IMG/VR virus record: IMGVR_UViG_2654587570_000012
Reading direction: 5' to 3' (one strand)
Source of the DNA: a virus
Taxonomy: Duplodnaviria > Heunggongvirae > Uroviricota > Caudoviricetes
Length of the DNA stretch: 5,189 nt
Made by a program: the position numbers and the translations under genes. Within the stretch, counting starts at the first letter, position 1. Every line of letters begins with the position of its first letter. Below are positions 1,566 to 3,934 of the stretch, piece by piece. Below the pieces are notes generated by a model. The model saw only the letters and a program-made list of their open reading frames with translations. It searched no databases and was not told the DNA's origin.

Positions 1566-1847
1566 TTAATCGTCAATGTATTTTGAGCATTGTGGGCAAT
1601 CATCGATCCCACAATACGATTCATATGCATCCTTTATTGCGTCGCGGGCTTCAGTAAGAGTATTGAATAAGTTGCAGCTATTATCTTTTTGATATAGGTT
1701 AGTTCCTAATTTATAAGCAGAAGAAGCATCATTTCCGCTGTCTAAAATTACATCGTTATGGATTCTGCACCTTGCAAGAACTCCTGATCCCATAAGGGTC
1801 TGCATAGCCCATTGCTCTTGATCTTCACACAAATCATGAATGCTCAT
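1566..1847 (-). CDS. ea8.5: Ea8.5-like small cysteine-rich protein (93 aa from ATG 1847)
   Basis: Seen: the track ORF 1566..1865 begins at a GTG; the in-frame ATG at 1847 is preceded by AAGAGAGGTG (good Shine-Dalgarno) and gives a 93-aa product MSIHDLCEDQEQWAMQTLMGSGVLARCRIHNDVILDSG...CGIDDCPQCSKYIDD. Inference: same length (282 nt) and position (first gene upstream of the xis-proximal small ORF) as lambda ea8.5; the family assignment rests on synteny and the Cys/His pattern, not a confirmed alignment. Confidence 0.6.
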   Translation of the reverse strand: MSIHDLCEDQEQWAMQTLMGSGVLARCRIHNDVILDSGNDASSAYKLGTNLYQKDNSCNLFNTLTEARDAIKDAYESYCGIDDCPQCSKYIDD

Positions 1848-1961
1848 TTCAACACCTCTCTTCACGTTTCACACACGTTAAGATTAACAGTGTTTTTACA
1901 TGCTTTGGAAGATTTATTTTATAAAAACTCTTTTAATACAAATAGATATAATAGTTCACTA

Positions 1962-2759
1962 TTATAGCTCCTTTAATCGAGGCGGTTCTGGTAGAGGCAT
2001 CCAGTGGGTTACACCGCCAATTGGCTCATCGTCGTCGTACTCCAATGCGGTTATATAGAACCCGTCACGACGAGAATAAGAAATCCCGGACATTACAATG
2101 CCATCCGAAACAACAATAATGTCACCCGTTTCTTTCGGCATTCGCTCACTACAGCTTATCCAACCATCCGGAGTCACCGGAAGCGAGAACGGCAGCACAT
2201 CTCTGTGAACAAGTTTTTGCTGTGACAGGTTATCCAGAACTTTCTGTACTGCTGCATCACCGAATACACCAAGCGCATCTGCCATAACTCCTACAACCTG
2301 ATAAGCCTCAGCGCATACCGTGGATAAACCATCCGGAATTACCGGAGAGTTGCCGGGTTCTTTAATGTGCAAGCGAGGCTCACCATCTTTTGGTTCAGGC
2401 CACTGGCGCTCCATGTTGATCTTCAATTTATCTTCCATAGCAGCGGTAATTTCAGCATCGCTGATGCCAGCACGGCGCTGTGCATCCCACAACAGGAAAT
2501 GCATATCAGCCCACTCGCTGAGATCGTCTGGTTCGGCTGCGGCTTCCAGAGCCTCTTTTGAGAGGTGTTTCAGTGGACCAATGGGGCCAACGCAGCCAAA
2601 TGTGGAGTCAGACCATTTGGCATGCTCGTGGCGAATCAGTTCGCGTTCCAGTGATGCCAGTGCAATTCGTGCCAGTTCCATTTGTTCGCCACGAGTAAGC
2701 CCGTTTTCAAGCGGATTTTTAATGAACAATTCAATACGTTCTTTGGTAATAGTGGTCAT
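1962..2759 (-). CDS. Two-domain cargo protein (265 aa): N-terminal MazG-like all-alpha NTP pyrophosphohydrolase (DUF550, dATP/dGTP diphosphohydrolase-type), C-terminal DUF551
   Basis: Seen: ATG at 2759 preceded by AAGGA (7-nt spacer); N-terminal half has the acidic pattern SKEALEAAAEPDDLSEWADMHFLLWDAQRRAGISDAEI (E-x2-E ... E-x2-D on consecutive helices); C-terminus ends GWISCSERMPKE...GVTHWMPLPEPPRLKEL. Established knowledge: E/D-rich helical motifs are typical of MazG-type pyrophosphohydrolases; the THWMPLPEPP tail is the DUF551 hallmark in lambdoid phage proteins. Domain names are from memory, not a search. Confidence 0.75.
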   Translation of the reverse strand: MTTITKERIELFIKNPLENGLTRGEQMELARIALASLERELIRHEHAKWSDSTFGCVGPIGPLKHLSKEALEAAAEPDDLSEWADMHFLLWDAQRRAGISDAEITAAMEDKLKINMERQWPEPKDGEPRLHIKEPGNSPVIPDGLSTVCAEAYQVVGVMADALGVFGDAAVQKVLDNLSQQKLVHRDVLPFSLPVTPDGWISCSERMPKETGDIIVVSDGIVMSGISYSRRDGFYITALEYDDDEPIGGVTHWMPLPEPPRLKEL

Positions 2760-2769
2760 TTGTTAGTCC

Positions 2770-3525
2770 TTAAAGTGCTAGTTGCAATTGCATTTCAAAG
2801 CGGTCGCGTTGTTCACAATACGCAAGAGAACCAGGGCTATTGTGTGCCTCAATCCGTTCTACCATTAATGCTGCGCGTGTCTCTTTACTTGCAGGTGCAT
2901 AAGCCCCAGACCAGGCTTTATCAATACCGATGTTTCGAGCGACGTTCGTACTATCTGCGCTGGCTAAGGGTAATTTTGTGAATATCAGCGGATTTAACAT
3001 GCGCAATCCATGTAGTTTCGTAACCGGCTGACCATGCCCATCAACAATGTGACGAATCAGGTCTTTCATTCTGGCTACCGCAAGAGTTGGGCGCTTTACG
3101 TCATAGTCGCCACAACTACCGATAGCCACTCGCGGAAACTCATTGCACAAATGAATAAATCGCTCGTCACTTTCATTCATGTGCCACACTGGAACGCCAG
3201 CTAGTTTTCCGTGAGGCCACTCATTCAGAAGCGCATCATTTTCCTCCTCTCCGCCATCAATAACATCCGGGATAATGGCAAAATCGAATCCTGGGTGATT
3301 CTTCCAGCGAGCAACAAACTCGTAGTAATCGCTCCAGTCGATTTTGTTTTTGCCAGCTGCTTTCCAGGCGGTGAATGCACCGTTGTCCAGCGCGAACGAC
3401 TGACAGTATTCAGCCGCGAGATTGATCTGGCCTGAATGCGCAAAACTGATAAACGCATGTCGCCCTTTCCATGCTCTCATTGCGCACGTATCAGGAGTAA
3501 TAGGCCCACCGTGGTAGTGAATCAT
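2770..3525 (-). CDS. tRNA-guanine-transglycosylase (TGT)-like catalytic-core protein lacking the zinc subdomain; candidate DpdA-type 7-deazaguanine DNA transglycosylase (251 aa)
   Basis: Seen: start chosen at ATG 3525 (AAAGGAG Shine-Dalgarno; TGAgATG coupling to the ea22-like stop) rather than the track's ATG 3567, which overlaps ea22 by 41 nt. Motifs that line up in order with bacterial TGT as I recall it: LDNGAF (res 46-51) vs TDSGGF; FAIIPD (res 82-88) vs MIFDEC; VAIGSCGD vs YAVGGLAVGE; ASADSTNVARN (res 188-198) vs DCVMPTRNARN. The protein stops about 50 aa after the ARN motif, so the Cys/His zinc site is absent. Inference: TGT-superfamily enzyme, most plausibly DpdA-like; motif-level only. 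Confidence 0.55.
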   Translation of the reverse strand: MIHYHGGPITPDTCAMRAWKGRHAFISFAHSGQINLAAEYCQSFALDNGAFTAWKAAGKNKIDWSDYYEFVARWKNHPGFDFAIIPDVIDGGEEENDALLNEWPHGKLAGVPVWHMNESDERFIHLCNEFPRVAIGSCGDYDVKRPTLAVARMKDLIRHIVDGHGQPVTKLHGLRMLNPLIFTKLPLASADSTNVARNIGIDKAWSGAYAPASKETRAALMVERIEAHNSPGSLAYCEQRDRFEMQLQLAL

Positions 3526-3526
3526 C

Positions 3527-3934
3527 TCACTCTCCTTTGATGCGAATGCCAGTAGCGCGGATTGCATCGATGACTTCAGAAACTTTGTATGCCATTACCG
3601 TTTGGTAATCATCGTGAAAATCTGTTCGATGAAGCATGCTGCTACGTTCCGGGAGCAGTATTTCCCGCGCTTCCAGTTCTGCAATGCGCTTTTTTGCTGC
3701 TTCCAGTTCATCCAGTAATTCCAGCACGGTAGCCGGATTAGCCTTGGCAACAAAATCCCGGACTGGCTTACAATCAATCTCCGCAATGGGTTGATACGAT
3801 GTGTAGCCATGCTGTCTTGTATAACTACCGTGACGAATAACGAAAAAATCACCATTTATTTTTTTAGCCTGCCACTTATCTTCACCGGCTTTCTCTGCCG
3901 CTTCACGCAGTGCCTGAGAGTTAATTTCGCTCAC
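3527..3934 (-). CDS. ea22: Ead/Ea22-like protein (135 aa, GTG start)
   Basis: Seen: GTG start at 3934 with AGAGAGG Shine-Dalgarno 6 nt upstream and GTGA overlap with the upstream stop; N-terminus MSEINSQALREAAEKAGEDKWQ...INGDFFVIRHG and a coiled-coil segment LELLDELEAAKKRIAELEAR. Established knowledge: a conserved QALREAAEKA-type N-terminus with a variable middle is typical of ead/Ea22-family proteins. Shorter than lambda Ea22 (182 aa). Confidence 0.7.
   Translation of the reverse strand: MSEINSQALREAAEKAGEDKWQAKKINGDFFVIRHGSYTRQHGYTSYQPIAEIDCKPVRDFVAKANPATVLELLDELEAAKKRIAELEAREILLPERSSMLHRTDFHDDYQTVMAYKVSEVIDAIRATGIRIKGE

Follow-up and report, generated by a model that had tools for sequence, protein, structure and literature searches.

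A gene encoding 251 amino acids in a lambdoid prophage of E. coli specifies a protein that sequence comparison shows to be a genuine, well-conserved representative of phage DpdA. We consider it probable that the protein is a compact, zinc-less DpdA of the singleton gamma-proteobacterial cluster (that of temperate lambdoid and P22-like phages), which would swap guanine in DNA for preQ0 made by the host. The gene lies in a window of 5,189 nucleotides, the whole stretch of DNA that was analysed (IMG/VR record IMGVR_UViG_2654587570_000012, Caudoviricetes), and its features are collected in Table 1.

Table 1. Features of the dpdA-like gene and of its surroundings, in window coordinates.
Feature	Position	Strand	Description
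ea8.5-like gene	1566-1865		other end of the slot
PF04447 (dATP/dGTP pyrophosphohydrolase) + DUF551 gene	1962..2759	minus	downstream neighbour of the dpdA-like gene
dpdA-like CDS	2770..3525	minus	251 aa + stop; predicted Zn-less TIM-barrel guanine transglycosylase, phage DpdA family
Asp191 codon (SADST)	2953..2955	minus	= CAjan Asp206, bacterial DpdA Asp256; catalytic nucleophile by homology; invariant in both alignments
His172 codon (KLHGL)	3010..3012	minus	invariant (48-member alignment); 19 residues ahead of the nucleophile
His115 codon (PVWH)	3181..3183	minus	= CAjan His132, bacterial DpdA His181; putative base pocket; 47/48
Asp87-Val-Ile-Asp90 codons (IIPDVIDG)	3256..3267	minus	candidate base-recognition aspartate
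Asp47 codon (LDNGAF)	3385..3387	minus	= CAjan Asp63, bacterial DpdA Asp95; putative general acid/base; invariant 48/48, 98/98
ead/Ea22-like gene	3527..3934	minus	PF13935, E=2.6e-17; upstream, same leftward early operon
Shine-Dalgarno AAGGAG	3532..3537	minus	6 nt 5' of the ATG; direct sequence reading

Genes of this kind are already known. The original prediction held that such a transglycosylase was not a described feature of lambda-type prophages; this has to be abandoned, as Hutinet et al. (2019) list 76 “DpdA-only” phages, among them the lambdoid or P22-like BTP1, SPN3UB, SfI and HK106 (Supplementary Data 1; PMC6884629). Near-identical dpdA genes in temperate coliphages of the DpdA-only kind have thus been on record since 2019, and the window gene is of an ordinary, known kind.

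Family assignment, active site and fold

In a profile search, the 251-aa protein matched PHROG 887 with E=2.3e-103. The family, that of phage DpdA, bears the annotation “queuine tRNA-ribosyltransferase”, a label also used by RefSeq, and the DpdA proteins from Iggyvirus Knedl, MED16 and Caulobacter phage DMCA fall into it as well. Phage DpdAs studied by experiment proved significantly similar: BLASTP retrieved the DpdA of CAjan (E=3e-9) and that of Knedl (E=2e-12), whose gene is flanked by FolE, QueD, QueC and QueE, and hhalign aligned the family profile with CAjan DpdA at 98.9% (E=2e-17, 177 columns). The prediction of a DpdA-like transglycosylase of the TGT superfamily is borne out by these three matches, and the values for PHROG 887 and for CAjan DpdA are too strong for a coincidental likeness.

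Profile searches against TGT and DpdA families, proposed with the prediction, thus pointed to phage DpdA, but at the HMMER level no match to TGT or to bacterial DpdA was obtained in Pfam, NCBIfam or PADLOC. PF01702 was matched neither by the protein nor by 48 relatives, even at E<=1; sequence searches of the PDB with the protein and two family profiles returned no TGT or DpdA, and no match came from hhalign when the family profile was compared with E. coli Tgt as a single sequence. Since searches at the sequence and HMMER level gave no match, the link to the TGT superfamily needs profile-profile or structural methods; it rests on the bridge through CAjan DpdA and on a published HHpred comparison, in which MED16 DpdA matched T. 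maritima TGT at 99.2% (PMC8306585).

Conservation was scored in a 48-member alignment reaching down to 34% identity, and in a 98-member alignment reaching down to about 32%. Six residues of CAjan DpdA fall in register on the window protein (D63 on D47, F67 on F51, H132 on H115, G153 on G136, F189 on L174 and D206 on D191), and all six are invariant or nearly so, the counterpart of D105 being ambiguous. Leu174 thereby takes the position of Phe189, the base-stacking residue of CAjan DpdA. Roles of residues are taken from PMC7544227 for the CAjan enzyme and from PMC10164549 for bacterial DpdA, whose activity is abolished by the D256A change (PMC10164549). Ser192, like D47, H172 and D191, is invariant in the 48-member alignment.

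Two of the motifs read earlier as counterparts of the TGT active site, LDNGAF with Asp47 and ADSTNVARN with Asp191, are present as stated, and their aspartates are the invariant ones of Table 1. The third, IIPD, is present too, but its aspartate is residue 87 rather than 88. Asp87 is found in 47/48 and 98/98 members, and position 90 is occupied among the 48 by D (29), E (6) or G (8). The hhalign register sets CAjan Asp105 on Asp90, while conservation favours Asp87, which leaves both as candidates for the base-recognition aspartate.

The chain stops 60 residues past the nucleophile and contains no Cys/His zinc motif: it has five cysteines in total, none of them conserved within the C-terminal 60 residues. 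That the protein ends before a zinc-binding subdomain was thus rightly noticed, but this is a trait of the family and not a truncation, as the subdomain is also missing from the DpdA of CAjan and Knedl; it is missing from Cap10 as well. As for the fold, an AF2 model built from 33 close homologues (pLDDT 73) had only generic TIM barrels as Foldseek matches, and a second one, built from 98 sequences of two clades, reached a pLDDT of 89. The (beta/alpha)8 TIM barrel of the TGT superfamily, on which the original prediction depended, was found.

Expression signals, neighbourhood and spread

The minus-strand open reading frame spans 3567..2770, and the 251-aa reading starts at the ATG at 3525..3523. 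This start is preferred because homologues, 248-252 aa long, begin with MIHYHGGP, and because the longer form would overlap the Ea22-like gene; the 265-aa form starting with the ATG at 3567 was discarded on both grounds. The stop codon of the ead/Ea22-like gene (3529..3527) lies 1 nt ahead of the dpdA-like ATG, a spacing which implies that the two genes are translationally coupled. A weak consensus scan revealed no promoter-like site 5' of the dpdA-like gene on its own strand, and the idea of an own promoter with expression in the lysogen was dropped for this reason.

This copy sits in a lambdoid prophage of STEC type that adjoins torS, and all its neighbours are lambdoid early-left genes. The slot between ea22 and ea8.5, given as its place in the prediction, is roughly right, but it holds two genes, the dpdA-like one and the PF04447+DUF551 one. 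The order ead-like, dpdA, PF04447-domain gene is identical in BTP1, and the PF04447 gene adjoins dpdA in BTP1 and Yersinia. Across the 80 species-level loci of our genomic-context survey, PF04447 lies within 5 kb of dpdA in 5 and next to it in none. A two-gene module was rejected on these counts, and the PF04447+DUF551 product is probably not a functional partner of DpdA. An Nmad5-family gene of the UTAK-6 prophage was also envisaged as a partner, and dropped because phage Stx1a_EH2115, with the same dpdA, has no Nmad5 gene.

Genes for preQ0 were sought in the 36.9-kb genome of Stx1a_EH2115, whose dpdA copy is 99.6% identical: it contains no homologue of FolE, QueD, QueC, QueE or YhhQ. No dpdB, dpdC or dpdD-K restriction gene was found among the neighbours, nor any Cap9, CD-NTase (M(G/S)G(G/S)GG tail) or QatC-type partner in the window or its flanks, and PADLOC gave no match for either set.

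More than 7,800 homologues were collected, forming 813 clusters at 50% identity, and the window allele is present in 204/5,426 complete E. coli genomes. The closest catalogued phage copies are those of BTP1 and SPN3UB (92.8% identity), followed by SfI (68%) and by HK106, 7-11 and MED16 (about 36-38%, MED16 at 38%). Compared with the BTP1 copy, dN is 0.043 and dS about 2; the gene is under strong purifying selection. Elsewhere in the family, association with genes of 7-deazaguanine synthesis or transport and of DNA modification was observed, while the window prophage itself is devoid of the former. A YhhQ-type transporter gene is directly adjacent on the same strand in 10/80 loci, one being that of an 86%-identical Erwinia copy; QueE is adjacent in one locus, and in one FolE-QueD-QueE lie 3 kb away. 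In phage DMCA, the homologue comes after a QueD-like gene. A Dam or C5 DNA methyltransferase gene is directly adjacent in 4/80 loci, and one member of the HK106 clade, a fusion with Dam, has an overlapping PF02592 gene.

Comparison with characterised systems

The protein is closest to the singleton (group 3) DpdAs of BTP1, SPN3UB, SEN1, 7-11, SfI, HK106 and MED16. These belong to the same family, measure about 250-265 aa, come from phages devoid of preQ0 genes, and are encoded in the early-left accessory region close to xis/int. No difference of substance was found, the window copy being that of an STEC-type E. coli prophage by torS, labelled “hypothetical protein” by PGAP.

With DpdA1 of Queuovirinae, it shares a homologous core with catalytic residues in register, the lack of a zinc motif and of a DpdB partner, and the same PHROG. 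Among these phages, CAjan has dPreQ0 at GA and GGC, amounting to 32% of G, 9g has dG+, and iggy has dPreQ0 at GA. Identity is however about 25% and limited to the core, and the Queuovirinae proteins, of 306-312 aa, are about 55-60 residues longer. Their dpdA1 moreover lies within a FolE-QueD-QueC-QueE cluster, with or without YhhQ, which supplies the substrate for replacing 16-32% of G, whereas the window prophage has no such cluster.

Bacterial DpdA (Salmonella Montevideo, PDB 7UI4) has the same active-site logic of three aspartates, a histidine and a stacking residue, but it is a protein of 413 aa with a helical insertion, Ins8, pinned by a CxCx2Cx22H zinc site, which needs DpdB and ATP and is encoded in the dpdA-K island (PMC10164549). 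The window protein has neither the zinc site nor Ins8, its gene has no dpdB neighbour, and the similarity is not detectable by HMMER. It also differs from the TGTs (Tgt, ArcTGT and QTRT1; PF01702), lacking their zinc subdomain, tRNA-binding insertions and N-terminal beta-sheet lid. Finally, Cap10 of type IV CBASS (PDB 9NTN) is zinc-less too, with a His226/Asp248 pair that resembles His172/Asp191 (bioRxiv 10.1101/2025.04.06.647259), but it binds a deazaguanylated CD-NTase, is encoded with Cap9 and CdnD, which the window lacks, and is only 9% identical.

Proposed reaction and competing explanations

By homology with the characterised enzymes, a scheme can be proposed for the activity and its substrate. 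Upon induction or infection, the gene would be read as part of the leftward early (pL-type) transcript, its translation coupled to that of the ead/Ea22-like gene. The target guanine of double-stranded DNA would be flipped into a barrel pocket formed by Phe51, Asp87/Asp90, His115, Gly136 and Leu174. Asp191 would then displace the base, giving a covalent enzyme-DNA intermediate, and an incoming preQ0, deprotonated by Asp47, would resolve it to dPreQ0, possibly visible as dADG. Because the phage has no gene for preQ0 synthesis or transport, the preQ0 pool would be supplied by the host, through its FolE-QueD-QueE-QueC pathway. Judging from other DpdA-only phages, the modification should be sparse, about 0.01-0.3% of G, and probably site-specific.

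Use of host preQ0 by DpdA-only phages was proposed by Hutinet et al. (PMC6884629). The earlier suggestion that a lone transglycosylase with host preQ0 could suffice agrees with their finding that plasmid DNA in E. coli acquires dPreQ0, to 0.03-0.3% of G, when dpdA of phage 9g is expressed alone (PMC6884629). DpdA-only phages themselves differ: 7-11 has dADG at 0.02% of G, and Orion DNA is unmodified, its host being devoid of preQ0 synthesis (PMC6884629). MED16 has dADG at 0.13% of G, and the restriction enzymes tested on its DNA were unaffected (PMC8306585). At such levels, the protection from restriction that had been attributed to the modification is doubtful. In the literature on DpdA of lambdoid, P22-like or temperate carriers, we found no experimental work and no measurement of DNA modification.

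What a singleton DpdA brings to its phage at less than 0.2% of G is a question already posed for MED16 and 7-11. One answer, which we hold to be rather unlikely, is that a lone lambdoid DpdA, rather than ensuring bulk anti-restriction, writes a sparse, site-specific 7-deazaguanine mark dependent on the host pool of queuosine precursors. It would bear on a few motifs of the phage genome or, once the prophage is induced, of the host chromosome. Packaging, gene expression or the evasion of one particular defence could be tuned by it, and it could tie the biology of Stx phages to the Q/preQ0 status of the host.

Should the protein prove active, 7-deazaguanines derived from host preQ0 could be put into DNA by a prophage present in about 4% of complete E. 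coli genomes, many of them from Shiga-toxin-producing strains. This could alter which hosts Stx phages and other lambdoid phages infect, how sensitive these phages are to modification-dependent defences (GrwAB, for example) and 7-deazaguanine-directed glycosylases, and how induced phage DNA is base-called in nanopore or PacBio sequencing. The present gain is small and chiefly one of annotation: for PGAP this is a “hypothetical protein”, and Pfam and NCBIfam have no model for it, the family being identified by PHROGs and the 2019 catalogue.

Other explanations were weighed against a DNA-modifying DpdA. The enzyme might act on RNA, i.e. host or phage tRNA, the trace modification of DNA in DpdA-only phages being a side reaction. 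Transfer RNAs are the classical substrates of the superfamily, the RefSeq and PHROGs label points the same way, the modification of 7-11 and MED16 DNA is limited to 0.02-0.13% of G, and singleton DpdAs form clusters separate from those linked to the preQ0 pathway, for which possible functional divergence was raised (PMC6884629). We nevertheless judge this improbable, since the nearest characterised relatives by sequence, the DpdAs of CAjan and of Iggyviruses, modify DNA, the protein has neither the zinc subdomain nor the tRNA-binding insertions of TGT, DNA methyltransferases are fused or adjacent in relatives, and a Tgt of its own is already present in the host.

The protein might also act on a 7-deazaguanine outside nucleic acids, such as the protein-linked base of Cap10 in type IV CBASS, or serve as an anti-defence factor that drains precursors or acts as a decoy. 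Counter-defence genes are common in accessory regions of temperate phages, and Cap10 shares with the window protein the absence of zinc and the spacing of the His/Asp pair (H226/D248 as H172/D191). The chances of this explanation are nonetheless slim: identity to Cap10 stays at 9% with no match at the sequence level, none of the Cap9, CD-NTase or QatC-type partners is nearby, and homology indicates DpdA.

A reaction in the reverse direction, stripping 7-deazaguanines from the DNA of competing Queuovirinae-type phages or mis-modifying it (superinfection exclusion), or a marking of the host chromosome, seems very unlikely. The frequency of the allele in E. coli genomes is in its favour, and accessory genes of prophages are often of use to the lysogen. 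TGT-type exchange is, besides, chemically reversible, and guanine exchange is what is assayed with bacterial DpdA (PMC10164549). Against this, a repressed lysogen is unlikely to express the gene, because of the early-operon position, the coupled translation and the lack of a promoter-like site, and virulent phages (7-11, MED16) carry homologues too.

That the gene is an inactive relic of a mosaic accessory region is scarcely credible: the copy of E. coli strain UTAK-6 is frameshifted, all genomes among the matches listed bear the PGAP label “hypothetical protein”, and Orion DNA is unmodified, but this last result is explained by the host of Orion, and the strong purifying selection and the catalytic residues, unchanged throughout the 98-member alignment with its identities as low as about 32%, speak for a functional enzyme.

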